Below are positions 17,396 through 55,794 of a stretch of DNA of 64,000 nucleotides, in pieces. Origin of the DNA: Planctomycetota bacterium. GTDB lineage: Bacteria > Planctomycetota > GCA-002687715 > CAIWVZ01. The translations under genes were made by a program, and so were the position numbers. The DNA is taken from positions 32,001 through 96,000 of the forward strand of contig JBGANV010000002.1 in the NCBI GenBank assembly GCA_044222185.1. Reading direction: 5' to 3'. Position 1 is the stretch's first letter, and the number at the start of each line of letters is the position of its first letter. The notes beneath the pieces are model-generated. The model was not told the origin of the DNA, did not search any database, and worked only from the letters and a program-made list of their open reading frames with translations.

Positions 17396-19672
17396 TCACC
17401 CTTCCGGCAGGTCGATCGTCGACGTCCACGTCTTGACCTCCGGGACCGCCGCAAGTTCCTCGTCATCCAGAACCATCACGCCGGGCAATTGGCCCGAGAT
17501 GATGGTTTGGATCTGGCGGCGCATCGATTCGTCGCGCACCAGGATGACCGGCATCCCGGCCGCGTGCTGATGACGTGGCATGTCCTTCGGTGACGCCGAC
17601 GTGGCGATGTAGGTCCCCAGGTGATTACACGGCTTGATGAACGCCCGGATGGCGTCGCGGACCAATGCGTTGTGGCCCCCACCGAGGCGGTTCAGGAGCG
17701 TGTGCTCGAGGCGGTACGCGTTCAGCGCGCCCGTCGGACCGACGTATCGCGAGAGCATGACGGGGAGCAGCTCACGTCGCACGATGGAGTAGGTCTTCTC
17801 GGCATCGCGCGCTTCGCGATTGGCGCCCTCGCGGCGGAACCTGGCGCGCAGGAACGCCTCGAGAATGCGCCCGCGATTGGCTTCCGTGAGAAAGATCTGG
17901 TCCCGCAGGCACATGCGAAGAACCTCGGTCGCCTCCGCCACGCCGGCAGCCTGCGCCGACGCCAGTGCGTCGAGCAACGCCCGGCCGAATTCCGGGAAGT
18001 CCGCTGCGGCGCGCCGCAGGAAGCCGTAGGCCTGCTCCGAATCCAACAGGTCGGCCGCACGCAGCGTCAGCGCGGATTCCAGATGGTCCAGGAGCACCTG
18101 GACCGGTGAGCGCACGAAACTCCCAGCAGGGTGCCCGCCGATCGGGTATGCCGCGGCCTCTCCCCAGGTCCCCGGTAGGGGCGCCGTCTCGGCAATCGCA
18201 TCGGCGAGCAAGGCGGCCGGGTCAGGGATTCGAGCAGCGAGGGAGCGATCCAACCGGATCGATCCGCGCGAGATGACGCCTCCGTTCAGCTCGATCACGT
18301 AGCTCGATCGTCCGGCCACCTGCGGAAACGCACGCTTCTCGATCCCGATCCGCTGGACCGGGAACCCGAGTTTTTCGCGCAAGTCCCGCCAGAGCACGGC
18401 GACCTGAAGCTCCGGACCGGCGATGTCAGGCCCATAGAACTGCAGGATCGTCTCTGGGAATTCGATCTTGTCGGGCGTGAGATCCCGGAACGCTCCGACG
18501 AGCATCAGGTGCAGCTCTGGTGGGACGACGAGCTTGATCGGCGTCGGCGCCGATTGCGGCTTGCGCGGCGTCGTGGCCGCAGCCTTCCCGACGGCCCCCG
18601 CCGGAGCTTCCGCGGTGGCGACCTGCCGACGCAGGGTGCGGAATCGATGAACGGAGAACCCGATGGCCATGGCTCCGAGAGCGGCGAACGGCACTGGGGG
18701 GAATCCCGTCACGGAGCTCGTGAGCGCGACCATCGTGAGAACGATTCCGACGAACATGACGGCGATGGGCTGATCGATGATCTGCCGCTTGATGTCGAAG
18801 GCTGCATTGCTGCTCGCGTCCTCGGTGGCGCGGACGCGCGTGACGAGCGCCGCAGCCGAGGCGGAGATGAGCAACGAGGGAACCTGGCTGACGAGCCCAT
18901 CGCCGATCGTGAGCAGCGTGTATTGGCGTGCCGCCTGGCCGATCGAGAGGCCCCCCTCGGAGACCCCGATCACGAGGCCTCCGATCACGTTCACCGCCGC
19001 GATGACGATTCCTGCGATCGCGTCGCCCTTGATGAACTTCATGGCACCTTCGAGGGCTCCGAAGAGACGGGCTTCCGCGCTGAGTTCGAAGCGGCGCGAC
19101 TTGGCTTCCGCTTCGGCCTTCTTGTCGGATGCACTCCGGGCCGTTTGAAGATCGGCTTCGATCGCCTGCTGCTTGAATGGCATGCCATCGAGGAAGAACC
19201 GGGCGGACGCGTCGGACGCGCGCTCGGCACCCTTCGAGATCACGATGAACTGGATCACGAGGAGCACGAGGAAGACGACCGTGCCCACGATGAAGTTGCC
19301 GCCGACGACGAACTCGCCGAACGTGGCGATGATCTCGCCGGCCCTGCCCTCGCCGAGGATCAACCGGGTCGTGGCGACGTTCAGGCCCAGGCGGAGCAGG
19401 GTCGTAAGCAGCACGAGTGTCGGGAGCGACGAGAACCGCGCCGCCTCGGACACCTGCGTCGCGACGACGAGGATCGTCAGCGACGCCGCCAGGTTGACCG
19501 CGATCAGGTAATCGATCATGCCGACCGGGATCGGCAGGACGAGCGCGATCAGGATGATCAGGACGAGGATCGGGAGCGCGGCCTCGCTTCCGAGCGCGAG
19601 GAACCGATCCACGGACTTGCGGAGACTCCCCTTCGCGCCCGGGGTGCTTGCCACTGAGACGGATCGAGACAT
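17396..19672 (-). CDS. sctV: T3SS export gate protein SctV (FlhA/LcrD FHIPEP family), divergent C-terminal domain
   Basis: Start ATG 19672; LLRLGLNVATTRLIL, FGEFVVGGN, QFIVISKGAER, LDGMPFKQ, GAMKFIKGDAIAG, LTIGDGLVSQVP; GAMKF is injectisome-type (FlhA usually GASKF). Confidence 0.9.
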   Translation of the reverse strand: MSRSVSVASTPGAKGSLRKSVDRFLALGSEAALPILVLIILIALVLPIPVGMIDYLIAVNLAASLTILVVATQVSEAARFSSLPTLVLLTTLLRLGLNVATTRLILGEGRAGEIIATFGEFVVGGNFIVGTVVFLVLLVIQFIVISKGAERASDASARFFLDGMPFKQQAIEADLQTARSASDKKAEAEAKSRRFELSAEARLFGALEGAMKFIKGDAIAGIVIAAVNVIGGLVIGVSEGGLSIGQAARQYTLLTIGDGLVSQVPSLLISASAAALVTRVRATEDASSNAAFDIKRQIIDQPIAVMFVGIVLTMVALTSSVTGFPPVPFAALGAMAIGFSVHRFRTLRRQVATAEAPAGAVGKAAATTPRKPQSAPTPIKLVVPPELHLMLVGAFRDLTPDKIEFPETILQFYGPDIAGPELQVAVLWRDLREKLGFPVQRIGIEKRAFPQVAGRSSYVIELNGGVISRGSIRLDRSLAARIPDPAALLADAIAETAPLPGTWGEAAAYPIGGHPAGSFVRSPVQVLLDHLESALTLRAADLLDSEQAYGFLRRAAADFPEFGRALLDALASAQAAGVAEATEVLRMCLRDQIFLTEANRGRILEAFLRARFRREGANREARDAEKTYSIVRRELLPVMLSRYVGPTGALNAYRLEHTLLNRLGGGHNALVRDAIRAFIKPCNHLGTYIATSASPKDMPRHQHAAGMPVILVRDESMRRQIQTIISGQLPGVMVLDDEELAAVPEVKTWTSTIDLPEG

Positions 19673-19739
19673 GGATGAACCCCCCGCGCCCGTTCGTGGA
19701 CCCGATGCGGACCCGGAGCCCAAGCGCGACTCGAGACGT

Positions 19740-19766
19740 TGATCGCGTTCGGGCTCGCCGTGTTGC
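19740..19766 (-). promoter_or_regulatory. Island promoter motif GCAAC-N16-CGATCA upstream of sctV
   Basis: + strand TGATCG 19740-19745, GTTGC 19762-19766. Confidence 0.75.
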
Positions 19767-19770
19767 ACGT

Positions 19771-19797
19771 GCAACGCCTCCGAGCCGACGACGATGA
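19771..19797 (+). promoter_or_regulatory. Island promoter motif GCAAC-N16-CGATGA upstream of the FHA/coiled-coil gene
   Basis: Back-to-back with the sctV site across the palindrome GTTGCACGTGCAAC. Confidence 0.7.
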
Positions 19798-19857
19798 AGG
19801 GATGAGGCCCCGTCCCGGCCGGCGCGAACCATGCGCCGACGCCGACGGGAATACACC

Positions 19858-21408
19858 ATGGATCATTCCGACGCAGAAACGTGCCCGCCGTCACCGACGG
19901 TCGACTCGGGCGCCCCTCCTGGTCCTCTGTCCGCGCCAACACAACTGGCTCTGGATCAGTGCGCGAAAGCGACGCGGGGAGCCGTCCTCGTTCAAACGGA
20001 AGGGGCGAACCGGGGTCGCCGGATCGCTCTGACTCCGGGCGAGCACACGATCGGGCGGGCCACGTGCCATTCGATTCCGGTGGACCCAAATGTCGATCGC
20101 GCAGTGTCGTCCCGCCACGCTCGCCTCCTTTCGAGCGGCGATGCCTGGTGGATCGAAGACCTGGGATCCACGAACGGAACGCTGGTCGACGGAGTGCCGC
20201 TTCAGGGTGGCGCACACACCTTGCACCCCGGTGCGCGAATCGAGGTCGGCCGCTCGGTGGGAGGCGACGTCGCTGGCACCGTGGCGTTCACCTTCGAATT
20301 GGAAGGCGAAGTCGCCCAGGACGGGTTCCGTGCGGTGGACGCGCATCATTCCGCATCCGGTTCGGCGTCGGCACCGTACGCAGACGTGGGCATGGGTGTC
20401 GACGTTCCGCCGCCCCCCGCCATGGGCGTCGCGCCGTCGCCGCGACGGCCACGGTTCGCCGATCTCCGTCACGCCGTCGAAAAAGGCCTCGGCCGGATCG
20501 TCTCACTGCCGGCTCGCATCCGCATCGAGGGTCAGATTCGCGATGCGCGGGAGCGGCTGGCCCAATTGGCGCCTCAGGCTCAACCAGCCCTCGGGGCGCT
20601 GGGAGCAGCGCTTGCAATCGAGGCTCCGGACGCGGTGCGACGAACGCCCCAGGCCGGGGAGCTCCAGCGATGCTGCGACGAGGCCGCGACTCGGCGCGTC
20701 GCCCAGGATCAGCTCACCCGCGATCGCGCGGAAATCGCCGAGAAACATGCAGAGGAAATGGCGGGCCATGAGCTCGCGATCAACGAGGCGGAGGCCGTCG
20801 CCGAGGTCGCGCGACGCGCGTTCGCTGCGGCACGCACCGAAGCGTCGCGGGATGAACAGGCGGTGCGGACGTACCTCCGCGAAGTGCAGCCAGCGTTCGA
20901 CGCCGCCGCGGCTGGACTCCGGGAAGCGGCCGCGGTGGCCGGAGGCGCTCCGATCCCCGACGACCTCAACCAACGCCTGGCGGCGTTGAATGCTCACCTG
21001 TCGGTCTGCGAGCCCGCCGCGCGGCGACTCGGCGAGGCTCTGGTCGTGCCGGAGGCCGCAAGACTCGCTTCGCGCCGTACGGCCGACACGGCCGCCGCGG
21101 CGCTGCACGGCGCGGAACAACGTGTGCGCGAACGACGCGACCTCGCATCCGCGACGCGCGCGAGGCATGACGCCAGCATCCAGGCGTTGGAGACTCGCGA
21201 GACGGCGGCACGTCAGGCCCTCGACGCGATGGCGTCGCGGACAGCTGAGGTCCACGCCGAGCTCGGCCGCACCGTGTTCCGCCAACGCATCGCCGCGGCG
21301 CTCGGACTTCCGGCCTTCGAGGGTGCCAGAGCCGCGCATGCCGCTCTCGTCGAGCAGGAAGATCTGATCGACAAACTCACGGCCGAGCTCCGGGCACATG
21401 GGGGGTGA
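19858..21408 (+). CDS. FHA-domain protein with long alanine-rich coiled-coil C-terminus
   Basis: FHA motifs IGR...VSSRHARL...DLGSTNGT; heptad-like A/E/R-rich tail; no TM; start ATG 19858. Confidence 0.85.
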   Translation: MDHSDAETCPPSPTVDSGAPPGPLSAPTQLALDQCAKATRGAVLVQTEGANRGRRIALTPGEHTIGRATCHSIPVDPNVDRAVSSRHARLLSSGDAWWIEDLGSTNGTLVDGVPLQGGAHTLHPGARIEVGRSVGGDVAGTVAFTFELEGEVAQDGFRAVDAHHSASGSASAPYADVGMGVDVPPPPAMGVAPSPRRPRFADLRHAVEKGLGRIVSLPARIRIEGQIRDARERLAQLAPQAQPALGALGAALAIEAPDAVRRTPQAGELQRCCDEAATRRVAQDQLTRDRAEIAEKHAEEMAGHELAINEAEAVAEVARRAFAAARTEASRDEQAVRTYLREVQPAFDAAAAGLREAAAVAGGAPIPDDLNQRLAALNAHLSVCEPAARRLGEALVVPEAARLASRRTADTAAAALHGAEQRVRERRDLASATRARHDASIQALETRETAARQALDAMASRTAEVHAELGRTVFRQRIAAALGLPAFEGARAAHAALVEQEDLIDKLTAELRAHGG

Positions 21409-22332: not shown

Positions 22333-22403
22333 ATCAGCATGCACCGGGAACGACCCGGGCGAGGCGGCGCCAATCGTGGATGCCGCGAGTCGAGGAGATC
22401 GCC

Positions 22404-23750
22404 ATGACGAACGTGAATCAGGTCAGCAGCGTCCGACGGCACGACATCGGTTTCCACCCCAAGCCCACGAGCCAACTGCAGGTCGGTGCAGGAACGATCG
22501 ACACGGGTCGATACCTGATCGAGATCCTGGGCCCTGGCGACGTGCGCGTGACGGATCGCACGAACAACACGAACTTCCGTGCCTGGGGTGATCCGCACAT
22601 CACGACCGGTGACAACGACCGTGCCCACTTCGAGGATGGACCGTTGACCATCGTCCTCCAGGACGGCACGCAGCTCACCTACGTGCCGACGGCGAAGGAC
22701 GCGAACGGGGTCGCGTGGCTCGACAAGCTCGCCGTCAAGCGGGGCAACGAAGCCGTGTGTGTCACGGACATCAAGACCGCTCCGAAGGTCGGTCAGGTCG
22801 GCCGCAACGCAGCCATGATCGACGGCTGCTTCGACCACGGCACTGTCATGTACGCTGGCGACCAGGTCGATGACCTGTTCTTCCAGGTTGACGGTCAGGA
22901 GCTGGTCGGCACCGATCCGCGCGGCGGTCAGTTCGGCGGCGAATGGGACCTGGATGGCCGCGGCGGAACGGCACCAACCTTCACGACTTCACCGATCCGC
23001 GGCACACCGTCGTTCCCGAACGACCCGGGCCGCCCGTGCGTTCTCCCACCGGCACCGCCGGCGATCTGGAACATGATCGAGAAGGGCCTCGCGGAACTCC
23101 TCCAGGGCGGACAGAACCCATTCGGCCACATGGACCCGCTGCGCGGGCTCGGCGCCCTTCTCATCCGCCAGTTGCTCCAGCAGTTCTGGTCGAACCTGGG
23201 CGGCGACGTGCCGTTCAAGCCGATCGGACCGCCGCAGAACGGCGGCTGCTTCGGACGCCCGGTTCATGCGCTGCGAGACTCTGCCTCGACCCCCGCGAAC
23301 GGCCAGGCGCCGGCGAATCTCGGAACGACGGGCTCCGTCGGGTCGAAGGGCAACTCGGTCGGCGGCAGCTCGGCCGGTGGGACCTCCGCGGCGGATGGCG
23401 TCACGTCGAACAACCGGGTCTACGGCGGAAAGTACTCGAGCAACGTCGACATCTTCACGCTCATCGCCATGATCCTTCACGACATGCAGGCCGACCTGGC
23501 GACCAAGGCGCAGGAACTCGCGAGCGTCTCGAACGAGATCAACACGCTCCGGGGCCAGTCGCCCCAGGGCGGCCAGCAGGCCGGCGGCGACACCACTCAG
23601 ATGTCGAACCTCGAGTCGAAGCGCAGCCAGCTCCTCTTCGAGATCGAGCAGCTCAAGCAGAAGATCACGGAGATGTCGGATCTGCGATCGAACATGTCGA
23701 AGACCGATCACGAGACCGCCATGACGATGATCCGGAACGTCGGGAACTGA
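22404..23750 (+). CDS. Putative T3SS substrate: N-terminal DUF1521/MIIA (GDPH autocleavage) domain plus needle/filament-like C-terminal helices
   Basis: RBS GAGGAG; WGDPH (22584-22598) in context VRVTDRTNNTNFRAWGDPHI...TIVLQDGTQLT; G/S-rich linker; C-terminus LRSNMSKTDHETAMTMIRNVGN; no Sec signal. Confidence 0.72.
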   Translation: MTNVNQVSSVRRHDIGFHPKPTSQLQVGAGTIDTGRYLIEILGPGDVRVTDRTNNTNFRAWGDPHITTGDNDRAHFEDGPLTIVLQDGTQLTYVPTAKDANGVAWLDKLAVKRGNEAVCVTDIKTAPKVGQVGRNAAMIDGCFDHGTVMYAGDQVDDLFFQVDGQELVGTDPRGGQFGGEWDLDGRGGTAPTFTTSPIRGTPSFPNDPGRPCVLPPAPPAIWNMIEKGLAELLQGGQNPFGHMDPLRGLGALLIRQLLQQFWSNLGGDVPFKPIGPPQNGGCFGRPVHALRDSASTPANGQAPANLGTTGSVGSKGNSVGGSSAGGTSAADGVTSNNRVYGGKYSSNVDIFTLIAMILHDMQADLATKAQELASVSNEINTLRGQSPQGGQQAGGDTTQMSNLESKRSQLLFEIEQLKQKITEMSDLRSNMSKTDHETAMTMIRNVGN

Positions 23751-23985: not shown

Positions 23986-25221
23986 ATGAGTTTCGGATTG
24001 GGAAGCCTGACCAAGGGGATACGGGACGTCGCGAAGGATGCCGTGGAATCAGTCGCTGGGAAAGCGGTCGACGCCGTGAAGGGAGTCGCGAAGGACGCGG
24101 CCAAGACGGTGGTGAAAGGCGGCCTCGCCTACGTCACCGGCGGCGCGTCGCTCCTCTTCGACAAGCAGATCGACAAAGCCATCGACAAGGGGATCGACAA
24201 GCTCGCCGATCGAGGCGAGAAGTACCTCGACCGCGCGGCCGACAAGCTGTTCGACGACGTCGAGGGACAGTTCGTGAAGCGGTCGAACGGTTCTGGCACC
24301 TCGGCTGACCTGCCATCGAACGATGAGCTGCGCCAGTCGTTCGTGGGCGACGTGCGAGGACTCATCGCGCCCCAGACTGGGGGCGCCGGCGTCGCGAAGA
24401 ACATCAACCCCGCCGCGGCAGCGTTCGTCGACGCGATCAAGCCGGCGGATGGAAAGAACATCAGCGAGGAACAGCTCTTCGCACTCGGCGCGTTCATCCG
24501 CACGGCCGCGCTCGCCGGACCCGCGGCGGCCCAGAAGTTCCTGGAGCAGTTCGCGGCACAGGCGTCGAAGCTCGGCGCAGGTGGCGGATCGGTGCCCGTC
24601 GAGAAGGCTACGGTCGCCGCGCTGCAGGACATGGTGAAGTCCGGCGCACTCCCGGCGGAACAGGCGGACAGGATCTACTCCGAAGCCTTCGCCGGCGCTC
24701 AGCTCGATCGCGACGCGTCGCAACTGTTCGACGGGACTGGCGGACCCAACGACCCGACGCAAGCCACGGCCCCGCTCGAGCAGGGACTGGGGAGCCTCTT
24801 CGATCGCCTGAACGGGTTCGGCAATGGGCAATCCGCAGCGCCACGCAAGCTCGCCGAGGCCAGGCCGGACGCGCGGCCGACGACCGCTCCCGGCGGCTCG
24901 GCGCCGGGATCGCGGGGCGGCATTCGCGTCGACGGTCCCCAGGGTTTCCTGTTCAAGCCGGTCTCCGACAGCGACGGGAAGCTCGTGGTGCTCCTCCCGA
25001 AGAAGTTCAGCGGAAAGGTGAAGAGCCTCGTCATCCGCGACTCGACGGGGAAGGTGATCGACAAGGGCCGTGCAACCGGTATCGGCAACGGCGATCGCGA
25101 GCACTTCCGCTTCAAGAAGGCGGGTGCGAGCTATCCCCCGAACGTCACCGTCGAGGTCACGCTCGAAGACGGAACGACGAAGAGCTGGCCCATCGGCGAC
25201 CCCTCGCAGCGCTACGACTGA
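23986..25221 (+). CDS. Hypothetical protein, candidate T3SS substrate (amphipathic K/D/A-rich N-terminal helices, beta-rich C-terminal domain)
   Basis: RBS GGGGAG; MSFGLGSLTKGIRDVAKDAVESVAGKAVDAVKGVAKDAAK; C-terminal GFLFKPVSDSDGKLVVLLP...GNGDREHFRF; own motif promoter. Confidence 0.65.
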   Translation: MSFGLGSLTKGIRDVAKDAVESVAGKAVDAVKGVAKDAAKTVVKGGLAYVTGGASLLFDKQIDKAIDKGIDKLADRGEKYLDRAADKLFDDVEGQFVKRSNGSGTSADLPSNDELRQSFVGDVRGLIAPQTGGAGVAKNINPAAAAFVDAIKPADGKNISEEQLFALGAFIRTAALAGPAAAQKFLEQFAAQASKLGAGGGSVPVEKATVAALQDMVKSGALPAEQADRIYSEAFAGAQLDRDASQLFDGTGGPNDPTQATAPLEQGLGSLFDRLNGFGNGQSAAPRKLAEARPDARPTTAPGGSAPGSRGGIRVDGPQGFLFKPVSDSDGKLVVLLPKKFSGKVKSLVIRDSTGKVIDKGRATGIGNGDREHFRFKKAGASYPPNVTVEVTLEDGTTKSWPIGDPSQRYD

Positions 25222-25366: not shown

Positions 25367-28300
25367 ATGACCTGGGATCAAAACACAGACTCCATCCTCG
25401 TCCGAGTCCCCGAAGCCAACGGATACAAGGTCCTCGAGGACTGCATCCTGTACTCACGCATCGGTGAGGGCGGATTCGGCGCCGTCTACCAGGCGTTCCA
25501 CATGCGCATGGAGATGGACGTCGCCGTCAAATGCATGAAGCCGCAACTCGACGCGGGCCCCGCCCTCCGGGCCGAGCTGCAGAAGCGCTTCGTTCGCGAG
25601 GCGCAATTCGGAGCCCGGATCACCCATCAGAACCTGGTGGGAATCAAGGACGTCCGGACCGCTCACGACGTCGACTACATCGTGATGGAGTACATCCGCG
25701 GCGAGAACGCCGAGCAGCGTCTCCGCCGCAAGCGCGTGCTCTCGGTCCCTGAAGTCACGTCGATCGTCCGGTTCGCTGCGCTCGGCCTCGCGGAAGTCCA
25801 CAGCCGGACGAGCGAAGACGGAGAGCCGTGCGCTCATCGCGACGTCAAACCCCAGAACATCATGGTGGCGACGACGGGACGCGTGAAGATCCTCGATCTG
25901 GGACTCGTGCGCTCGCGCCAGGCCAACTCGAGTCATACGTCCTTGGGAATGGGCGCCGCCGGCACACCGCCTTACATGCCACCGGAGCAGTTCGACAGCT
26001 TCGCATCGGCCGGTCCAGCGGCCGACGTCTGGGCCCTGGGCGCGACGCTGTACTCGCTCCTGACCGGCGAGGCGCCGTTCCGCGGCAGCGAACACGAGAT
26101 CAGGAAGGCCGTCACCACCGGGGCCTTCCCCGACGTGGCGGCGAAGCGTGCGGATGTCCCTGCGGCACTTCGCGCCATCATCGAACGATGCACGCGAAAA
26201 GATCCGTCGGAGCGGTTCCGGACGGCCGCCGAGTTCGCGGTCGCTCTCGACCCGTTCGCCACGCTTCAGGAGGCTGACCTGGCAGATCAGAATGCCGGAC
26301 GCGACGGTGATCCGTCGCCGTTGGGCCGACCGTCAGCGGAGACGGTGGCATCCATCCAGCACGAGATCGGTGCCGCACACACGCCGCCATTCCCCGCGAC
26401 GTTCCCGCCGACGGTGCCGCCACCGCCCCATCGATCGCCCGTCGCCCGCGCAGCCGCGATCCTCTGCGTGATCCTCTCAGCGGTCGGCGGTTACCTGTGG
26501 CTTGCGGCCGACGAGGGGTGGCCACCGTTCCGGCCGTCGCCATCGCCGAACCCGCATCCAGGCCCGACGCCGGTCGTCGAGAAGTCGTTCCGAACCGTGG
26601 CGATGAAAGACCTGTGCGACGTCTCGATCGGCCAGGCGGACGGTACGCGCAGCGGGCCGGAGAGCCGACCGATGCAGCGCTTCGCGGCGCTCGAGGCTCC
26701 CAGCCTGCCGCCCTTCACTGCCGAGCAGGTCGTGGTGAACGTCAAACGTCACCGTGCTGCGACGCGGATCTCCGTGACCGTTGGATTGAACCGCGCTCAG
26801 CTGACGCCGAACCCAAAACCCGACCACGACGAGTACACGGTCGACATCCCCGTGGGGACGACGAGCCTCCACCTGGAGGCCGTCTTCGATGATCCAACGG
26901 AGCATCTCGACGCCTCGGCAACGCTATCGCTCACTCGGGAACGAGCGACGGTCCCGTTCGACACGCTCGCGCGAATCGAGTGGCGGTGCGAGCCAGGCGC
27001 GGCGTACGGCGCACCACCCGCAACGACGACGGCGGAGTCACTCGACGTCCGTATCGTCCCCGCAAGCCCCGCGGCCGATCTGACGCACGTGACGCTGGAA
27101 TGCGCTGGCACGCCGATCCCGCTCGATGCTCTGGCTGCCGGTACGTCCGAGGCTCGCATCCCGCTTGGCGCTGCCGGAAGGAAGACGGTCACATGCTTCG
27201 TGTCGACCGCGACGAAGGAGGCGACATCCACCGTCGTGATCGAGCGCTCCGAGCCCGAGCGTCGCCCCGCCGCGCCGATCGCCTTGGCGCCGAAGACTCC
27301 GTTGAAGTCGAATGCGGACTCGTGCGAGGTCCTGCTCGAGGGGCCCCCTGAGAAAACGGTCGTGACCCTCGTGACGCTACGTGGGCGAACGACGGTGAAA
27401 ACGCCCATGTCGGAACCGTTCGACCGGACACGCGTCCAGTTGTCCTGCCGCGTGAGCGGGCAGACGCCCATGGTTCTCGACGACAAGGCCGCCCGCTCCA
27501 CGCTCGCGCTCGCTCAAGCCGATTCGGCATTGTCGACGAGTGCCGACGTGGAGGTCGTCGCGAACTGGCACGACGTCCCCCTCGCCCACATGACGGCAAC
27601 CATTCACGTGGATCGTCAGCCACCGACGTTCCAGTTCCGGGAGTGGGAAGACATCGACGGCCTGAAACTGGCGATGTCCTATCTCGAGGGAAATCCGCGA
27701 CTCACGGCGCGCCTTCACGTCTCCGAGCCGATCGAGGTCGTCGATCCACCCTCCGACTCGACGATCGCCCTGGTCAACCCGACGACGATCCAGGTCGGGA
27801 CTCCGCTCCTGCCGTCAGGAGCGTCAGTGTCGGTATCGGTGCGCGACGCGGCTGGAAACGAGGCCCGGTTCGATCGCACCTTCGAAGACGCACTCGCCTA
27901 CGCACGCAAGCGCCTGCCGCTCGGCGATGATCCGGCCAAGGGTCGGCGGTTCCTCGTCCTGCCGTTCTTGCCCGAGAAGCCAGCGAAGCAGTCCATCGAA
28001 CGCCGCGCATTCGCGCCGGTCTTCGATCCGAACGCGGTGAAGGGCGAGTACGAAGCGGATCGCATCACGACCGAGTGTCGTGACGAAGTGGTCCGGCGGC
28101 TGCGCGAACTCGTGCCGAACGTGGAGCTCATCGACAACCGTGAGGTCGACTCGATCCTGGGCGTCATCGACCCGCCAAGCCCCGGGGTGATCAATGCGGC
28201 CGCCCTGAATGGCAGCTTCGACCATGGGGTCGCAGCCCGACTCGCGGTGATCCTCCGGGCAGACGGCTGGATCCAGGGATCGTTCAAGCTCCTGACGGAT

Positions 28301-28646: not shown

Positions 28647-28673
28647 GCAACGACCCGTTCCCGATTGCGATTG
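28647..28673 (+). promoter_or_regulatory. Island promoter motif GCAAC-N16-CGATTG upstream of the ECF sigma
   Basis: Intergenic, ends 9 nt before ATG 28683. Confidence 0.6.
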
Positions 28674-28682
28674 GAGGATGTC

Positions 28683-35581: not shown

Positions 35582-35610
35582 GTGCATTCTCCTCGGGAAT
35601 CTGCATCCAC

Positions 35611-47534: not shown

Positions 47535-48026
47535 CTAAGCAGTGATCGTGGTGGCGTTGGATCCGTTGCGCCGAGCTCGGGCCACGCGTTGCAGTTCGGC
47601 CGCCGCTCGACCGCCATCCGTCCCGCGCCCGACCTGTCGAGCGCGATCGAACAGGCTCGCGATCGCCTGCGTTTCGCGCTCGTCCGCCGGAAGCCTCAGG
47701 CTCAGGTCGTGACGTGCGGCGCCCTCGAGCCCGAGGGCGAACGCCAGTTCCCCGGCGTTCAGGCGGGGTTTCGCCATCGCAGCCCGCGCATGCTGGACGG
47801 CGGCCTCGGGCCGACCCTCGAGCCACGATATGAGCGCAAGCTGGACGTCGACGAACCCGCTCTGCGGCTGGAGGATCATGAGCGCGCGATAGAGATCGCG
47901 TGCTCCGTCGAGCCACCGCAGCATCACCATGAAGTGGGCGACCTCGGCGAGGAACCGCACTCGCTCCACCCGACGGTCGTCGGGCGCGAGCCCCGCGAGG
48001 ACCTCATGTAGAACCGGCTTTTCCAT
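47535..48026 (-). CDS. Small TPR protein, YscG/SctY-like chaperone
   Basis: ARDLYRALMILQP...LALISWLEGRPEAAVQHAR TPR pattern; directly after the needle-like gene. Confidence 0.6.
   Translation of the reverse strand: MEKPVLHEVLAGLAPDDRRVERVRFLAEVAHFMVMLRWLDGARDLYRALMILQPQSGFVDVQLALISWLEGRPEAAVQHARAAMAKPRLNAGELAFALGLEGAARHDLSLRLPADERETQAIASLFDRARQVGRGTDGGRAAAELQRVARARRNGSNATTITA
47543..47569 (-). promoter_or_regulatory. Island promoter motif GCAAC-N16-CGATCA inside the 3' end of the TPR gene
   Basis: + strand TGATCG 47543-47548, GTTGC 47565-47569; about 40 nt upstream of ATG 47504. Confidence 0.65.
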
Positions 48027-48062: not shown

Positions 48063-48347
48063 TCACGGCTTGATGTTGCGGACGGCTTCCATCCCTGCGT
48101 CGTGATAGGTCTTCGAGATGTTCGATCGCAGGGAGAACTCCTGCATCACGGCTTGCATCTCGACCTGCTTCTCGAACAAGGCGTCGAGACGACTGATCTG
48201 ATCGCCGCCCCCGCCGAGACCGAGGAATGATGCGCCGATCCCCAAGGGCGAGCCGCTCAGCACCGTCGACACCGCGGCCCCGAAAGTCGTGCCTCCGAGG
48301 CTTGCACCGGAAAAACCAAGACCGCCGCTGAAGGACCCGGCACCCAT
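48063..48347 (-). CDS. SctF-like needle/filament subunit, 94 aa
   Basis: RBS GAGGAG, ATG 48347; G/S-rich N-terminus; C-terminal LFEKQVEMQAVMQEFSLRSNISKTYHDAGMEAVRNIK resembles needle-subunit C-termini. Confidence 0.65.
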   Translation of the reverse strand: MGAGSFSGGLGFSGASLGGTTFGAAVSTVLSGSPLGIGASFLGLGGGGDQISRLDALFEKQVEMQAVMQEFSLRSNISKTYHDAGMEAVRNIKP

Positions 48348-48398
48348 GACGTTGCTCCTCATGCTCCGCGCCCAGGATCGGGCGAGGCTCGCTGGTGA

Positions 48399-48454: not shown

Positions 48455-48760
48455 TCAGGCGTTTCCGAGCTTCCGCAGCTCCGCCACGAATGCCCCCGCT
48501 GCGCCGAACGCATGGTCGACGCGGTCGATGGCTTCCGCATCGTCGGTGCAGACCGAACGTGCCGACGCGAGCCAATCCCGCACTTCGCCGAGGAACCCGT
48601 CGAGTTCGGAACAGCGATCGCCGCTCCAGGACGCCGTCAGCATCCGGTGCAGGACGTCGCCCCCTCGAAGGGGTTCCGCGGGCTTGGATTCCGGCTGATC
48701 TGCCGGCGCTCGATCTGACGCGTTCATCACCTGCTCCTCCTCATCCGTTGGTCGCTTCAT
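48455..48760 (-). CDS. Small helical protein, possible YscE-like needle co-chaperone
   Basis: About 100 aa, helical, ends DHAFGAAGAFVAELRK; directly upstream of the needle-like gene. Confidence 0.5.
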   Translation of the reverse strand: MKRPTDEEEQVMNASDRAPADQPESKPAEPLRGGDVLHRMLTASWSGDRCSELDGFLGEVRDWLASARSVCTDDAEAIDRVDHAFGAAGAFVAELRKLGNA

Positions 48761-50111
48761 GGATCAGCCGGCGCATCTCGGCGACGACGCGATCGGCGGT
48801 TTTCTGAGTGGACCCGAACGGGTCGGCGGCGTCGTCGCCGCCCCGGTGTTCCGCCGCATCCAACGCCGCGCGCATCCCGTCCGAGTCGTGCGCGGCGAAT
48901 GCCGCGAAGAACCTCTGCGTCGCGTTCCAGAACGGCGAGAACCCCATGTCGACCGTCCCAGCCGTCGTTGCGACGAACTGGGAGAACCCGGCCAGGTCGT
49001 CAAGCGTGTCCTTCGTTCCTTCCTGGAGGAACCGCTGGGTGTAGACGACCAGCAGCCCGGCAACGAGCGGATCGTAGTTCGCGGCGAGCGCGGTCGGTCG
49101 CGCACGGAAATCGAGGAACGCCTCGAACTGAACGCGTGCCTTGTCGAATTCGCCGATCTCCATGTAGGTCGCGCCCAGTCGGAACTTCACGACGAACAAG
49201 TTCTTGTCGATCGTGAGAACTTCGCGCAGACGCTCGGCGTAAGCGCGCATGCGCGCGACGTACGCGGGATCGTGGGCCTTGACCGCCGGTCCCATGGCAT
49301 CGACGGATTCATCGAGATCCGTTGCGGCGCGCTCCGCCTGGATCAGGGCGCGGCTCGCCTCGAAGACGTCCGAGCGCCACGTCGCGCCAGGAACTCCGTT
49401 GCCGGGACCCCGAGCCGCGACGTTCCACGACCAGCTCTCCTTCAACCACGTCGCGACGATGCGCTTGGCAGCCGTCGGAGTGATCGTGGGGTCGTCTCGC
49501 AGGCGGCTCGAGTTGAACACTGCCCCGATGTTCGCTGCGAAGTTCTTCCCGATGATCGTTCCGAGGAACGAGAGGAACGCCTCGCCCGGCGGTTGGTCCC
49601 ACGCCTCGAGGGACGACGTGGCGACCTCCGCGCTCTCGAGGTAGCGGCGGGCTTCTGCGTACTTGCCTTCGAGACGCGCGATCAGGGCGAGCCCGATCCA
49701 CGCAGGCGGCCAGTCCGGGCAGATCCGCAGGGCATCGCCGAAGTGGTTGAACGCAAGCGCGTGTGCGCTCTCGGCCGCCGCGCCGCGCGGATGCCGCAGC
49801 GCCACGGCGTCGAGGCGCATTTCCCCGAGCTTCGAGTGGAACAAGAAGCACTGGGGGTCGTGTTGGATCGCGTCATCGAGCGGGCGGAGAACCAGACGCC
49901 GGCGTCCGCTCTCGAGTTCGTCTTGCGACAGTGGCGCGGAGTGGAGTTCGAACCAGCCCCGTCGCGCTTCCTCGTATTTCGTCTGACCGGCCTGGCTCAA
50001 GAACAGCGCATCCCGGTCCGGGATCTCGCGCGAAGCACAACCAGGCACGAAAACGATCACCAACGTGACGATCGCCATCACGACTGCGCGGCAGGTGGAC
50101 TCGAGGGTCAT
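48741..50111 (-). CDS. TPR-containing lipoprotein heading the T3SS operon
   Basis: Signal ending FVPGC; TPRs ALRICPDWPPAWIGLALIARLEGKYAEA and LGATYMEIGEFDKA; start ATG 50111 or 50123. Confidence 0.75.
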   Translation of the reverse strand: MTLESTCRAVVMAIVTLVIVFVPGCASREIPDRDALFLSQAGQTKYEEARRGWFELHSAPLSQDELESGRRRLVLRPLDDAIQHDPQCFLFHSKLGEMRLDAVALRHPRGAAAESAHALAFNHFGDALRICPDWPPAWIGLALIARLEGKYAEARRYLESAEVATSSLEAWDQPPGEAFLSFLGTIIGKNFAANIGAVFNSSRLRDDPTITPTAAKRIVATWLKESWSWNVAARGPGNGVPGATWRSDVFEASRALIQAERAATDLDESVDAMGPAVKAHDPAYVARMRAYAERLREVLTIDKNLFVVKFRLGATYMEIGEFDKARVQFEAFLDFRARPTALAANYDPLVAGLLVVYTQRFLQEGTKDTLDDLAGFSQFVATTAGTVDMGFSPFWNATQRFFAAFAAHDSDGMRAALDAAEHRGGDDAADPFGSTQKTADRVVAEMRRLIHEATNG

Positions 50112-50213
50112 TGGACGCTCCATGGAGGGTTCGCCCCGCGGTCGTTGCGGGCCCGACGGTGCAGAGCAGCGATCACCGAGCCCGTGACGGGCCAGGCCAC
50201 TGCCTCCGCAGTG

Positions 50214-50403: not shown

Positions 50404-52254
50404 ATGGCCGAGACCCTGATCGTCCGTCACGCTGCCAACTCGACCCTCGCTGGCCGGGAGCAACGGTTCACCAAGCCCGTCGTCCGCATCGGGCGGCGTC
50501 GCGGCAACGACGTCGTGTTCGACGAAGCGCAGGATCGGCTGGTCTCCGCCGTCCACGCGGAAGTCCGAACGGAGCCCTCCGGCGTCACGCTCGTCGACCT
50601 CGAGTCCAGCAACGGGACCTTCGTCAACGGGCGAAGACTGCGGCCGCACCAACCCTCGCGCATCGGCCCGTCGGACGACGTGCAGCTGGGCGGACCCACG
50701 GGCCCGCGCCTGTCGCTGTTCGCCGATGGTCCGCCTCCGTTCGCTCGGGGCGCCGACGAATTCGGCAGCGCGACGATCATCAATCGCCCGAAGGAACGTT
50801 CTGCGTCCCCCGCCATTCCCGCCGTTCCCATGCACGGCCAGAAGCAGGGCATCGGTCAGGCGACGCTCTTTCGCGTCGTCAGCGCCGCAACGGCCCACGA
50901 GCGACGGCGCGTCGTGTGGATCGCGACGGGCCTGCTCGTCGTCGCCGTCGGAGCGGCTGCGGCGTACTTCTTCTTTTGGCCCCCGCCGATACCACCCGTC
51001 GTCGTCGACGCGGATGCGGCGGCACTGAGCCGCAAGTTGAACGAGTACAAGGGCTCGGTCTACGTCGTCGCGCGACGATCGCGTGACCAGAACAACAACG
51101 TCACGGACGATCCGTTCGGAACGGCATGGTCCTGCGCCCCCGGACTTCTCGCGACGAATGGCCACGTGGCACGGGCGTTCGCCAACCTGAAGCCGGGAGA
51201 GACGCTGATCGCGCGGAGCGGCGCGACACCGCCGGTCGACCTCATGCTGGTCGGGCAACGGACTCACCCTGGCTACCTCGAGTTCGAGGATCTGGTGAAG
51301 CGGTACACGCTCAACCTCTCGGCCGCCCCATTCGAGTCGATCAAGGGCGGGTGCGACATCGCCGTGCTCGAGGTCGACCCGGGGTACGTCCCGCGACAAG
51401 CGCCCCCGCTGCCGATCGCCTCGGACGCAGAGCTCGGCTCCATGAAGCAGATGGACTCGGTCGGGTTCATCGGCTTCACCATGGAGAACCGCGGCCTGAA
51501 CATGGAGCGCCCGGTACCGATCATGGCGAACGGCGGGATCTCGAGCATCTCCGACTTCTTCCTGGGCGCCGCACCTTCGGACCGTGGCGAACTGATCGCG
51601 TTCACTGCCGCCGGCGGAGGCGGCGCAAGTGGGAGCCCGGTCATCGCCGCCAGTGGGAAAGTCGTCTGCCTCCTGTATGCCGGCGACGTGACGACTTCCG
51701 GACACTCGGGTCCACGAGTCAGTGTCCCCGGCGCCCAAACGTACGGCCAACGCGCGAACATCCTGCGCGAGCTCCTCGATGGGAGCATGTCGGCCCGACA
51801 GCCGATTCGGCGCGCCAGCTGGGAGCAGTCACTCCGACCGCTCTTCGAGCAAGCGAACGCGGAGTTCATCAACGCCGCGCTCAAGGACCAATCCGTCGCG
51901 CTGCGGCGCGCCGGCAAGATTCGCTATCCGGACAACGCCGTCGTCAGCGACGTCTGGGAGGAGGTCGACTCGAGGAAGGTGCGGATGAGCGGAGTCGGCG
52001 CGGCGAACGCGGCGACGGTCGAGATGCGGACGCTCCGCACGGGCTTCCACTTGATCATCGCCGTTCCGACGACTGGCCCGGCGAACATCGACATCATCGC
52101 GCCGGGTGCCGAGGACACGGCGGGAGACTTCATCCCGATAATCGGTCAACGCATCGCCCCTGGTCAGCCGGCAGTCATCCGTGTCGTGAACGCCGACACG
52201 CTCCTCACCGGCGCAGTCGAAGCGAACGTCAAGTGCTTCCGGCTGAAGGTCTGA
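50404..52254 (+). CDS. FHA-TM-trypsin-like serine protease fusion
   Basis: FHA IGR...VSAVHA...DLESSNGT; TM; triad motifs TNGHVA, DIAVL, GASGSPV. Confidence 0.88.
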   Translation: MAETLIVRHAANSTLAGREQRFTKPVVRIGRRRGNDVVFDEAQDRLVSAVHAEVRTEPSGVTLVDLESSNGTFVNGRRLRPHQPSRIGPSDDVQLGGPTGPRLSLFADGPPPFARGADEFGSATIINRPKERSASPAIPAVPMHGQKQGIGQATLFRVVSAATAHERRRVVWIATGLLVVAVGAAAAYFFFWPPPIPPVVVDADAAALSRKLNEYKGSVYVVARRSRDQNNNVTDDPFGTAWSCAPGLLATNGHVARAFANLKPGETLIARSGATPPVDLMLVGQRTHPGYLEFEDLVKRYTLNLSAAPFESIKGGCDIAVLEVDPGYVPRQAPPLPIASDAELGSMKQMDSVGFIGFTMENRGLNMERPVPIMANGGISSISDFFLGAAPSDRGELIAFTAAGGGGASGSPVIAASGKVVCLLYAGDVTTSGHSGPRVSVPGAQTYGQRANILRELLDGSMSARQPIRRASWEQSLRPLFEQANAEFINAALKDQSVALRRAGKIRYPDNAVVSDVWEEVDSRKVRMSGVGAANAATVEMRTLRTGFHLIIAVPTTGPANIDIIAPGAEDTAGDFIPIIGQRIAPGQPAVIRVVNADTLLTGAVEANVKCFRLKV

Positions 52255-54090: not shown

Positions 54091-54100
54091 TTGATTCGTC

Positions 54101-54994
54101 ATGTCCCTCCAACCAGACCTCGGCTCGCCGCCGCGGCCGCGCCAAGGCGCCCGTTCGAGCGTCGGCCCGCCCCCGTCGAGTGAGTCCACAAGCAGCTTGC
54201 AGGATCGCTGCGTCGAGTTGCGCTTCGGGGCTCGACCGCCGCAGGTACCGGTCGTGATCGATCCCGACGGCGCGAGGCCACCTGACGACGACGGCGCCGT
54301 CCACGTCCGACTGACGCGCGACGGAGCGCAGGTCTACGGCGCCGACGGCCGATCCGCCGGATCGATTCGCAAGGGCGAGCTCGTCGGCGTCGACGGATGG
54401 TCCGTGGCTCTGGTCGAGGTCGCCTCCGACACCGGTCCCACGTCCTTCGTTCAGGGTTTGCTCCAAGCGCGGTTGGTCCTCGATGCGGGCCCCTCCACTG
54501 GCGGGCATCCGCGCGAGCGCGCACTCCGACCCGATCCGGACCGTGTCGTCACCGTCGGGAGAGGGCCGGACTGCACGATCGTCATCGACGACCCGAAGGT
54601 CTCGCGGCGCCAGTTCGAGATCACCTATCGCGCGGCTCTCCAGGACTTCTGGCTTCAGAACGTCAGCCAGAACGGGACGCGCGTCGACGGCCTCCTGATC
54701 ACGGGCTCCGACGGACGCCGTCTCGTGCACGGCGATGCCATCGCCGCGGGCGATTCCACGCTCACGTTCTTCAACGCATGCCGATTGCCGGACCTTCCGG
54801 CCAACGGTGCCGCCCAGGATCCCATCGATCCACCGCCGGAGCCCGCCCGACCGCAACCGCGCAAGAAGGGCAAACGATCGGATGCGACGGCTCGACGTCG
54901 CCGCGATGCGGTCGCCTTCATCGGCCTCGTCCTGGCGCTGGTCGGCCTCATGGGATTGCTCATCTGGACCCTCACTTCTCCAGGTCACCAGTAG
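54101..54994 (+). CDS. FHA-domain protein with C-terminal TM anchor
   Basis: VTVGRGPDCTIVIDDPKVSRRQ...QNVSQNGTRVDG; C-terminal AVAFIGLVLALVGLMGLLIW. Confidence 0.82.
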   Translation: MSLQPDLGSPPRPRQGARSSVGPPPSSESTSSLQDRCVELRFGARPPQVPVVIDPDGARPPDDDGAVHVRLTRDGAQVYGADGRSAGSIRKGELVGVDGWSVALVEVASDTGPTSFVQGLLQARLVLDAGPSTGGHPRERALRPDPDRVVTVGRGPDCTIVIDDPKVSRRQFEITYRAALQDFWLQNVSQNGTRVDGLLITGSDGRRLVHGDAIAAGDSTLTFFNACRLPDLPANGAAQDPIDPPPEPARPQPRKKGKRSDATARRRRDAVAFIGLVLALVGLMGLLIWTLTSPGHQ

Positions 54995-55008
54995 GCACAG
55001 GTACTGCC

Positions 55009-55794
55009 ATGACGAAGCCCGAACCGCAGATGATGGATGTGACCTCCGGTGTGCCGCTGACGCCAGAGGAGGCCACTCTCGCCGCCAATCACGTGGGTTA
55101 CGCGGAGAGCCTCGCGAGGCTGGTCAAGAGCCGCTTGCCCCGTCACGTCGACGTCGATGAGCTCATCGGCGCGACGTACGCCAAACTCCTGGAGCTCGTC
55201 CGGCGCTTCGATGCCGGCCGTGGCGCGACGTTCACGAGTTTCGCGTACCTGCCGCTCCTCGGAGCAGCCTGGGACGCGGCACGGAAACTCGCCCGCCACG
55301 ACCGCCAGGTGCAACGGATCATTCGGACGCATCGCGCCCACCTCGAGGTCGGAGCTGCCGAAGGCATCGCAGGCCCGGTCGCGGGAGAGACGCCTGAGGA
55401 GACGTTCTCCCGCGCGGTGCGCAGCCGCGTCGTCGTCCACATGATCTCCCAGATTCCCGATGAGGATGACTCGATGCCGGAACCCTTCGTCGATGAAACA
55501 TCCGCGGCGGCCCATGCGCAGGAACGTGAGGACGCCTCGATCCGCGAGCGCGTCCGCGCGAGGCTGCGTTCGTTGATCGCGAGGCACCTGGAGGCGGCGG
55601 AGGAGAAGGAACGCCTCGTCATCCGCGAAGTCCTGCTGAAGGGCCGCACCCTCGACGACGTCGCGACCGAGCTCGGCGGAATCAACAAGTCGAACGTCGC
55701 CCGTCGGCTTCAGAAGGCCGTCGACCGTCTGGCCGAGCGGCTTGGGCCGGACCTGCAGGCTGGCGACGGTTATTGGGCCACGAGCCCGGGTTGA
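55009..55794 (+). CDS. FliA/WhiG (sigma-28)-like group 3 sigma factor, divergent
   Basis: Start ATG 55009; RLPRHVDVDELIG...RRFDAGRGATFTSFAY...GAAWDAAR; region 4 EKERLVI...GRTLDDVATELGGINKSNVARRLQKAVDRL. Confidence 0.8.
   Translation: MTKPEPQMMDVTSGVPLTPEEATLAANHVGYAESLARLVKSRLPRHVDVDELIGATYAKLLELVRRFDAGRGATFTSFAYLPLLGAAWDAARKLARHDRQVQRIIRTHRAHLEVGAAEGIAGPVAGETPEETFSRAVRSRVVVHMISQIPDEDDSMPEPFVDETSAAAHAQEREDASIRERVRARLRSLIARHLEAAEEKERLVIREVLLKGRTLDDVATELGGINKSNVARRLQKAVDRLAERLGPDLQAGDGYWATSPG

Follow-up and report, generated by a model that had tools for sequence, protein, structure and literature searches.

A planctomycete gene cluster probably related in make-up to the secretin-less type III secretion system of Myxococcota

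The stretch of DNA analyzed here, referred to as the window, comprises 64,000 nucleotides of a Planctomycetota genome (G000:C6:32001-96000; assembly of 7.08 Mb in 16 contigs). Between positions 17396 and 55794 it carries a gene cluster for a divergent type III secretion system (T3SS) of the non-flagellar kind. We consider this system to be a relative, in its make-up, of the secretin-less T3SS* of Myxococcota, a reading to which we assign a probability of roughly two in three. It would be a planctomycete variant of the myxobacterial type of T3SS, secretin-less at its locus. In the accessible text of the papers on the myxobacterial systems (PMC3459982, PMC12075869), T3SS* has no secretin, tip or translocon and keeps the export apparatus, SctJ, SctI and the sorting platform. 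The window follows the same pattern and also has a FliO homologue inside a non-flagellar locus (PF04347, 25.7 bits).

Open reading frames (ORFs) were called with a codon-usage score, chosen because of the high G+C content, which gave 50 ORFs in the window. The G+C content is even, at 65–71% throughout, and the cluster shows no compositional break; its genes are all intact, with codon usage and G+C matching the genome. The ORFs were compared with Pfam (40 of the 50 ORFs, E ≤ 0.01) and NCBIfam, membrane segments and lipoboxes were noted, and hhalign was run against Ysc, Mxi, Hrc and Rhc reference proteins. The minus-strand run from 50123 to 36443 is one co-directional series with short gaps or overlaps, in the order TPR lipoprotein, E, F, G, H, I, J, K, L, N, O, P, Q, FliO, R, S, T, U. 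The sctV gene lies 17 kb from this main run, with regulators and a gene for an MIIA protein between the two parts and on the far side. Also present in the cluster are genes for three FHA proteins and two Ser/Thr kinases, together with those for an ECF sigma factor and another factor of the sigma-70 family.

Nine core assignments (V, U, T, S, R, FliO, N, L and J) pass their Pfam cut-offs, which bears out the reading of sctV and a J, L, N, R, S, T, U run in the initial annotation. All are on the minus strand. The export apparatus and the ATPase account for six of them: the export gate sctV (17396..19654; FHIPEP, 456 bits), the export switch sctU (36443..37612; Bac_export_2, 201 bits), sctT (37620..38411; Bac_export_1, 152 bits), sctS (38439..38708; Bac_export_3, 67 bits), sctR (38723..39391; FliP family, 190 bits) and the ATPase gene sctN (42554..43954; ATP-synt_ab, 225 bits). 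The longest ORF of sctV extends to 20215, and the FHIPEP domain begins at its residue 221. The FliO-like protein (39388..39864; 25.7 bits against a cut-off of 22) has one membrane segment. The stator gene sctL (43951..44709) matches FliH with 32 bits and SctL in hhalign with a probability of 93. The inner-membrane ring lipoprotein encoded by sctJ (45609..46622; YscJ_FliF, 42 bits) has a lipobox and a C-terminal membrane segment at residues 297–315, and it is of the SctJ rather than the FliF type (NCBIfam 46.6 versus 20.2 bits; hhalign to SctJ, probability 99.4). For the other proteins the injectisome and flagellar models of NCBIfam score about equally: 381 bits for SctV versus 389 for FlhA, 171.5 for SctU versus 163.5 for FlhB, and 358 for SctN versus 348 for FliI. 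Equivalog cut-offs are reached by neither kind of model, except that SctR exceeds the subfamily model NF009438 (EscR/YscR/HrcR; 202 bits, cut-off 179), with 179.5 bits for yscR versus 161.9 for fliP. Such near-equal scores below the cut-offs are the signature of a distant branch. The window SctN and its nearest relatives (P0122, P0124, P0129, P0131, P0134 and P0150) have no precomputed match to T3SS_ATPase_C (PF18269), unlike most of the other matches listed.

Close relatives of the system are few. Among 5.8 billion proteins the best relative of SctV is 54% identical and the next 37%, and the nearest relatives of SctN are 69% and 55% identical. The closest relatives lie on a 57.8-kb JGI contig with P0122, P0242 and P0394 (SctN 69%, F 57%, TPR lipoprotein 51%, the last being the single close homologue of that protein in a search of the 5.8 billion proteins) and on a second contig, of 15.9 kb, with P0002. 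Compared with known families, the window SctV is 33–45% identical to none in particular. No SctV match in 300 other Planctomycetota genomes exceeds 292 bits, a value near the 264 bits scored by the FlhA of the genome itself. The best 80 loci from a scan of a genome collection with SctV are all 30–35% identical over the full length, and none of the 80 loci returned by a metagenome scan with SctN matches F, G, H, I, K, the TPR lipoprotein or the MIIA protein, nor is any a member of the clade.

Three other planctomycete genomes, here called G022, G331 and G346, carry the same system. G022, found through the SctV tree, has the same slots in the same order, including the position of FliO, with SctU, MIIA and SctV together about 15 kb away. 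G331 was found through a DNA pattern for the C-terminal peptide motif shared by the F and MIIA proteins; SctV, the TPR lipoprotein, F, G, H, I, J, L and N form one run, and next to it are an MIIA gene, a kinase gene and the genes for a sigma factor and a tail-anchored FHA protein. In G346, a genome of the same order found with the F-family profile, the whole set occupies 40 kb, including homologues of the FHA-anchored protease and of the 411-aa MIIA partner described below.

Phylogenies place the system on the non-flagellar side. The SctV tree (75 rows, quick search, LG+G4) contains 30 flagellar rows, 38 non-flagellar rows and a Planctomycetota-only clade of 7 rows (support 99) that holds the window. 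The 38 non-flagellar rows are those of Myxococcota, Chlamydiae, Ysc, Mxi and Hrc, and of some Planctomycetota together with Verrucomicrobia and Lentisphaerae. The FlhA of the genome itself nests among Planctomycetota FlhAs, in agreement with the planctomycete host that had been proposed. In a concatenated tree of SctR, SctU and SctV (32 rows, 1276 columns, LG+C20 PMSF, quick search), 21 flagellar rows split off with a support of 100 on a branch of 0.61, and the window pairs with G022 at 99, outside the 9 Myxococcota and canonical rows, which are grouped at 96. In a SctN tree, rooted on the F1 alpha and beta subunits of the genome after one 616-aa ATPase-like row had been dropped, the window falls within a planctomycete group of 21 rows (support 83) and apart from the FliI of the genome. 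With the root among flagella, as Abby and Rocha inferred in 2012 (accessible text of PMC3459982), the clade would lie at or near the base of the non-flagellar lineage. The description of the system as deep-branching and divergent agrees with both the trees and the low identities. Other planctomycetes (G268, L012; G239, L017; proteins P0048 and P0049) have a canonical-type SctV, which groups with systems of Verrucomicrobiota, Lentisphaerota and Desulfovibrionaceae, so that non-flagellar T3SS of two unrelated kinds occur within the phylum.

The cluster is a second export system, distinct from the flagellum of the genome. Another FHIPEP gene, on contig C7 (828 bits), lies beside FlhB- and FliP-like genes; C7 also carries FliI-like and FlgB/C-type genes, and five rod/hook-type matches are found on C10 and C7, three of them on C10. 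As initially noted for rod, hook, flagellin and MotAB genes, Pfam scans of the window ORFs reveal no FliF, FliG, FliM, FliE, rod, hook, flagellin or stator/Mot family. The export gate and the ATPase complex are homologous to those of flagellar export (FlhA, FlhB, FliOPQR, FliHIJ), FliO is present in both, and the window differs in its SctJ- and SctI-type proteins. In a rival reading, the cluster would be a duplicate of the flagellar export apparatus that is decaying or has been co-opted and has no secretion role of its own; the almost equal NCBIfam scores, all under the equivalog cut-offs, the retained FliO-like gene and a long branch in the concatenated tree speak for it. However, all genes are intact and genome-typical in composition, a set of about 20 genes keeps its order in genomes whose SctV is only 33–34% identical, and an SctJ-type lipoprotein replaces FliF. 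Furthermore, a joint clade with planctomycete flagellar proteins is rejected by the approximately unbiased (AU) test (LG+G4, 22 of the 32 rows, 10 flagellar-side rows dropped) with a log-likelihood difference of 120 and a p value of 7.5e-67. The flagellar duplicate is disfavoured, and we regard it as very improbable.

Among the known systems closest to the cluster are the non-flagellar T3SS of Myxococcota, which comprise the long and short loci called "Myxo" by Abby and Rocha (2012) and, in M. xanthus, the T3SS* (mxan_2434-2464). Like those loci, the window cluster has no secretin, and it has FliO-like, SctJ and SctI-like genes and an F-family small protein adjoining a TPR chaperone; genes for a tail-anchored FHA protein, for Ser/Thr kinases and for a related sigma factor lie within the locus or next to it. 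One Archangium locus consists, in this order, of SctU, TPR chaperone, F-like, TPR chaperone, SctV, tail-anchored double-FHA protein and kinase; in a second, F-like and SctI-like genes are followed by SctJ, Q, R, S, T, U and V. Further myxococcotal loci have an F-like gene beside a G-like chaperone and a homologue of the window sigma factor. F-family genes are found at L056:9006-9164 and L232:3599-3712, on contigs of Archangium metagenome-assembled genomes, and also in L224, L225, L227 and L230. Differences are that the two groups form separate clades in the SctV and SctR+U+V trees and belong to different phyla, and that the Archangium F-family proteins are longer (ORFs of 182–244 aa). The MIIA/GDPH protein with its F-type helix, its partner and the TPR lipoprotein at the operon head are planctomycete features that were not detected in the Archangium stretches examined; one myxococcotal locus, L231, matches only the C-terminal part of the MIIA protein. 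Of the FHA-anchored protease of the window and G346, only the FHA part is matched in these stretches. The FliO-like gene, read at first as a flagellar relic, is not peculiar to this system: FliO in non-flagellar T3SS of Myxococcota is already reported in the accessible text of PMC12403147.

The F slot is occupied by a small protein (48063..48362, minus strand) of 99 aa; its N-terminal half is rich in Gly, and its C-terminal stretch can be aligned with the ends of YscF and MxiH. A first profile of three rows (the window, G022 and G331 copies) retrieves 325 proteins at E ≤ 0.001 among 1.84 billion cluster representatives. The 150 matches listed are 49–155 aa long, and the match reaches to within a few residues of the C-terminus. 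Ten sampled members are named only "hypothetical protein". An alignment of 143 rows was built from the window protein and 142 of the 150 listed matches. Three of the 143 rows match the needle protein family PF09392 (best E 7.5e-4), the window protein not among them, and the rows match no other T3SS family. Searched against the PDB, the 143-row profile has a single match, 7y6c_F, a 43-residue chain of a T3SS needle–chaperone entry (E 0.017); phmmer with the F protein alone has none. Aligned by hhalign to YscF plus MxiH, the family gives an E of 7e-4, helix on helix to both C-termini, with SctI next at E 0.06, and pairwise Smith–Waterman comparison with reference T3SS proteins does not pick SctF. 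AlphaFold predicts from the 143-row alignment one helix at residues 53–95 (pLDDT about 95) and a disordered N-terminal half. A complex prediction of the TPR chaperone with F, made from 3-row alignments only, scores 0.01 and carries no weight either way. Taken together, F may be distantly related to the polymerizing C-terminal helix of SctF.

The initial annotation had called F a needle-like subunit. The operon slot and a distant likeness to the SctF C-terminal helix sustain part of this claim, whereas the two-helix hairpin of a needle subunit is replaced by a single predicted helix. The further suggestion that such a subunit sets the system apart from Myxococcales is contradicted by the Archangium loci: in the accessible text of the two papers, the myxobacterial T3SS has no SctF (Abby and Rocha 2012, PMC3459982), and T3SS* has no secretin, needle or translocon (2025 M. 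xanthus Kil pilus paper, PMC12075869), but the same F family is present within Archangium T3SS loci, and the contrast of a needle here and none there therefore fails. The F-family profile matches all five Myxococcota or "delta" genomes that were picked through a non-flagellar SctV. Its distribution among relatives of the window genome is patchy, with matches in 0 of 4 genomes of the same family, 1 of 18 of the same order and 1 of 40 relatives overall; the relatives without a match are 66–100% complete.

The absence of a secretin from the window, also asserted in the initial annotation, is confirmed. PF00263 has nine matches in the genome, eight of them over the cut-off and none on C6. A local secretin HMM, built from the eight secretins of the genome plus YscC and HrcC, finds no match in the six frames of the window, where control secretins give 324–335 bits, nor in 60, 60 and 40 kb around the G022, G331 and G346 clusters, nor in three Archangium stretches. 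All eight secretins are of the type II secretion system (T2SS) or pilus type by best NCBIfam model: GspD for four, PilQ for two and MshL for two. The SctC model scores 32–120 bits on the eight, against a cut-off of 238, and is the best model for none. Five of the eight have a T2SSE ATPase gene or a PilM gene in their vicinity: four of the genes, at three loci, lie within a few kb of a T2SSE ATPase gene, and two are near a PilM gene. One PilQ-type gene on C8 lies 18–33 kb from pilus ATPases. The orphan secretin on C1 (C1:1909603-1910949; L047:9604-10950), a 448-aa lipoprotein, stands beside an OmpH-like gene and a gene for a response regulator with a GGDEF domain, and has no T2SS, pilus or T3SS genes nearby. 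None of the 20 genome-wide copies of the candidate promoter motif described below is near a secretin gene.

Several observations weigh against the reading preferred here. No SctD ring partner for SctJ was identified. The initial statement that a canonical SctD is missing stands insofar as no protein has the full architecture of an FHA-like domain, a membrane segment and periplasmic ring-building domains, and hhalign of the cluster proteins to SctD gives nothing; it needs qualifying in that three FHA proteins match the YscD cytoplasmic-domain model with 31–35 bits. The candidate with the most SctD-like topology, the FHA-anchored protease, apparently keeps its catalytic His, Asp and Ser, as read from the sequence, a feature more in keeping with an enzyme for signalling or processing than with a component of the ring. 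F is not a canonical needle hairpin according to the structure prediction, and its likeness to SctF is weak by each of the three profile comparisons given above. The assignments of SctQ, SctO and SctP likewise come from weak matches or position, and E, H and K have no match at all. In the AU test, a clade with the three Archangium systems is borderline rejected (log-likelihood difference 14, p 0.047 under LG+G4). The window branch is the longest in the SctR+U+V tree, at 2.25 changes per column, and the deep position may therefore partly reflect long-branch attraction. The SctN tree has an unreliable root and a backbone of low resolution. The TPR lipoprotein at the operon head, finally, is reminiscent of the pilotins of pilus secretins, and a pilotin-like protein would favour a secretin borrowed from elsewhere.

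This lipoprotein (48741..50123, minus strand) matches TPR families and has a lipobox in the window and G022 copies; only generic TPR clusters were found for it in the ESM Atlas. Counterparts precede E/F in G022, G331 (857 aa) and G346, and thus in all four planctomycete clusters. In another rival reading the machine would be injectisome-like and complete, using a secretin from a different part of the genome with this lipoprotein as pilotin or docking factor, and "secretin-less" would hold for the locus only. Eight secretins over the Pfam cut-off are available in the genome, one of them the orphan on C1 without a T2SSE ATPase or pilus gene nearby. Abby and Rocha (2012, accessible text of PMC3459982) argue that T3SS took secretins from other machines at least three times, and in the same paper chlamydial systems are spread over several loci. 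On the other hand, none of the eight has SctC as its best model, no secretin lies within 40–60 kb of the four planctomycete clusters or in the Archangium stretches, the candidate promoter motif links none of them to the system, and SctD, the usual link to a secretin, was not found. A borrowed secretin is, in our view, quite unlikely, and we retain the kinship with T3SS*.

Besides the core genes, the main run holds a series of slots that follow the order of the Yersinia ysc genes, and the initial annotation had filled E, F, G, H, I, K, O, P and Q accordingly. ORFs are indeed present at all of these positions and their order is also kept in G022, although the support is uneven, with E, H, K and P placed by position or conservation only. 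Profile support, of a weak kind, exists for I, G, O and Q. The SctI-like inner rod protein (46619..47074, like all these genes on the minus strand) matches TIGR02497 at E 0.006 at its C-terminus and SctI in hhalign at E 2.5e-5 (probability 75), with HrpB2 as best pairwise match (z 7.8). The TPR-type chaperone in the G slot (47535..48026) matches the NCBIfam SctY chaperone (E 4e-4) and LcrH/IpgC in hhalign (E 6e-4, probability 29), and its counterparts adjoin F in G022, G331, G346 and Archangium. The putative SctO, a FliJ-like stalk protein (41975..42550), follows sctN and matches FliJ of NCBIfam at E 0.0015 and of Pfam at E 0.025. The SctQ candidate (39978..41141) lies between P and FliO; it has no match in Pfam or NCBIfam, and its C-terminal 56 residues align by hhalign with the SpoA region of SctQ at E 9e-4 (probability 23). 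The P-slot protein (41148..41978), a possible ruler or switch by position, has a C-terminal stretch of about 75–90 residues conserved in G022 and G346, for which hhalign to SctP is not significant (E 0.096).

The remaining slots are without a family match. The H-slot protein (47082..47504) is conserved, at 32% identity in G022 and 29% in G331. The K-slot protein (44654..45577) is placed by position and has a counterpart of 26% identity in G022, and G331 shows no counterpart between J and L. The small E-slot protein (48455..48760), also placed by position, has a G022 counterpart of 24% identity. Neither the TPR lipoprotein nor any of the E, H, K, P and O slots has a significant hhalign match among the reference proteins of Ysc, Mxi, Hrc and Rhc, and permissive Pfam scans of unassigned window proteins give nothing under E 0.02. 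In slot order (E, F, G, H, I, J, K, L, then N, O, P, Q, R, S, T, U), in the homology of V, U, T, S, R, N, L, J and I, and in a TPR chaperone beside the F-slot gene, the cluster resembles the Yersinia Ysc system (yscA-L, yscN-U, lcrD). Unlike in Ysc, no yscC, yscD, yscW pilotin, gatekeeper, tip or translocators were recognized in the window; a TPR lipoprotein stands where Ysc has yscC and yscD, a FliO-like gene lies between Q and R, and the window F has only the C-terminal helix.

Between the two parts of the cluster, on the plus strand, lies the gene for a probable secreted substrate of 456 aa (22380..23750). Its N-terminal part is an MIIA/DUF1521 domain with a GDPH motif (23.9 bits, barely over the cut-off of 23.6), and it ends in a C-terminal helix of the F family. 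The WGDPH sequence is conserved in G022, and homologues of 34–43% identity lie beside sctV or sctU in G022, G331 and G346. Only two ORFs in the genome end in the F-type motif, both in the window, and the DNA pattern for this motif occurs in 3 of 401 genomes (five sites) versus none for the reversed control. According to the accessible text of PMC6506597, T3SS-secreted MIIA proteins cleave themselves at GDPH on binding calcium or metal. NopE1 and NopE2 of Bradyrhizobium and VIC_001052 of Vibrio coralliilyticus share with the window protein the DUF1521 match, the conserved GDPH and a gene inside a T3SS cluster, whereas the window protein has a single domain fused to the F-type helix. It may be a calcium-triggered distal subunit or an effector. 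The adjacent conserved gene (23986..25221, plus strand) encodes a 411-aa partner without a Pfam family; a 34% identical homologue lies between the MIIA gene and sctV in G346. The AlphaFold model of this partner, made from 2 rows, has a mean pLDDT of 57, and Foldseek finds no match to it in the PDB at E ≤ 0.001.

The regulatory genes are all on the plus strand. The first, divergent from sctV, encodes a long Ala-rich helical protein with an FHA domain (19831..21408; FHA 47 bits, Yop-YscD_cpl 32.3 bits) and has no hydrophobic or membrane segment. Two Ser/Thr kinase genes flank the ECF-type sigma factor (28665..29525; Sigma70_r2, r4_2). One kinase (25367..28591; Pkinase, 153 bits) has a membrane segment at residues 461–479 of its long ORF and homologues in the G331, G346 and Archangium clusters; the other (29705..32188; Pkinase, 130 bits, plus TPR families) has two homologues of 36–37% identity in the G346 cluster. 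On the far side of the main run, the FHA-anchored protease (50404..52254) combines FHA (60.6 bits), Yop-YscD_cpl (35.1 bits, cut-off 33.2), a membrane segment at residues 173–191 and a periplasmic trypsin-like part (Trypsin_2, 37.7 bits), and a 34% identical homologue over 498 residues precedes sctR in G346. The tail-anchored FHA protein (54101..54994; FHA 55.6 bits, C-terminal segment at residues 270–288) is encoded directly upstream of the FliA-like sigma-70-family factor (55009..55794; Sigma70_r2, r4). This pair is repeated in G331, where the sigma gene lies beside sctV; in Archangium, tail-anchored double-FHA proteins occur beside sctV, and homologues of the sigma factor beside F-family and chaperone genes. 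Because of this recurrence in the relatives and in Archangium, the pair, the FHA-anchored protease and the kinases belong to the system and are not chance neighbours, and the idea of a dedicated sigma, FHA and kinase module was well founded.

A candidate control sequence was found as well. The word CGTGCAAC has 7 sites in the window versus 2.65 expected, a number reached in 1 of 100 shuffles. The sites include a palindromic one at 19762-19775 upstream of both sctV and the divergent FHA gene, and others at 35633-35640, 50236-50243 and 25069-25076; the genes downstream comprise, besides sctV and the FHA gene, the operon headed by the TPR lipoprotein and one membrane-protein gene. CGAT follows 15–18 bases after the word in four of five aligned sites. 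An extended form of the word occurs 20 times in the genome versus once for the control. The word may be a shared promoter or operator, which we regard as a lead only.

Four genes on the minus strand between the cluster halves (32248..36324) are of uncertain membership; their products are a collagen and tail-collar protein, one secreted protein, a membrane protein with two segments and one protein of 197 aa. The first (32248-33501) has collagen triple-helix repeats and a phage tail collar domain (Collar, 87.6 bits). The other three match no family, and counterparts of the four were not found in the G022, G331 and G346 stretches examined. The 197-aa protein (35731-36324) has a very weak phospholipase-A2-like match of the prokaryotic type (E 0.3) and a C-x-x-H-D stretch, and may be a lipase-type effector. 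Two features of G022 were also noted. Directly after sctT, an open frame (L134:1-5802, minus strand) that is 1934 codons or more in length and has repeats within it may encode a giant secreted or surface protein. A 179-aa ORF (L134:12372-12911), which we take to resemble an IS200/REP-associated tyrosine transposase, is inserted between sctL and sctN.

A working model of the system as a relative of T3SS* can be outlined, its points becoming less certain in the order given. SctQ and the K-slot protein would form the sorting platform, with the P-slot protein as the switch. The first substrates would be the SctI-like and F-family proteins, F being held in the cytoplasm by the neighbouring TPR chaperone, and the C-terminal helix of F would pack on SctI to give a short axial structure in the periplasm. 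The MIIA protein would be exported next, as a distal subunit or effector that cuts itself at GDPH on meeting calcium outside the cytoplasm. Expression and activity would be controlled through phospho-threonine signalling, by the cluster sigma factor together with its tail-anchored FHA partner, by the periplasmic protease with its FHA anchor and by the Ser/Thr kinases. The system would have no secretin of its own, and any passage through the outer membrane would take place by other means. As to the route, we see slightly better than even odds for no dedicated channel and a much smaller share for a borrowed secretin, with other solutions making up the rest. By analogy with M. xanthus, the likely use would be action on neighbouring cells, possibly the contact-dependent attack on other cells that had been proposed at the outset.

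The analogy allows another arrangement, in which the cluster would encode a basal-body-only export platform working with a Tad- or type IV-like pilus at cell contacts, the pilus giving lytic effectors their outer-membrane route. In M. xanthus, prey lysis requires T3SS*, which the Kil Tad-like pilus recruits (accessible text of PMC12075869), and the Archangium T3SS loci share with the window the F family, TPR chaperone, FliO, tail-anchored FHA protein, kinases and sigma factor. Matches to the T2SSE ATPase family number 12 in the genome, pilus-type secretins are present as well, and the weak phospholipase-A2-like match would fit a lytic effector. Against these points, neither the window nor the surroundings of the related clusters examined hold pilus genes, and no Kil-type genes turned up, in searches that were not aimed at them. 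Nor is the planctomycete clade established as sister to the Myxococcota systems, given the p value of 0.047, and we know of no predation in the planctomycete lineage of the window. A pilus partner is, in our view, somewhat unlikely, and the reading outlined above is preferred.

The origin of the injectisome from the flagellum is a long-standing question, and to our knowledge the only intermediate known so far is the secretin-less myxobacterial system. Full-text literature search, with most subscription journals outside its reach, found no published description of such a T3SS in Planctomycetota. The present cluster would extend the secretin-less kind of non-flagellar T3SS to this phylum, and a second secretin-less lineage in another phylum would offer an independent point for ordering the gain of SctJ, SctI, SctF, SctD and the secretin. 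We may speculate further, while considering it unlikely as a whole, that the planctomycete clade is the earliest surviving branch of non-flagellar T3SS, a living example of the ancestor drawn by Abby and Rocha in 2012, without a secretin and with an SctF-related axial subunit in the periplasm, here the F family; that the T3SS* of predatory myxobacteria builds a short, overlooked needle or rod; and that the MIIA protein is its distal, calcium-triggered end piece in planctomycetes. The analysis also brings to light a 325-member family of small SctF-like proteins without a Pfam family, which occurs as well in loci of the myxobacterial predation machine, described as needleless in the accessible text of PMC12075869.

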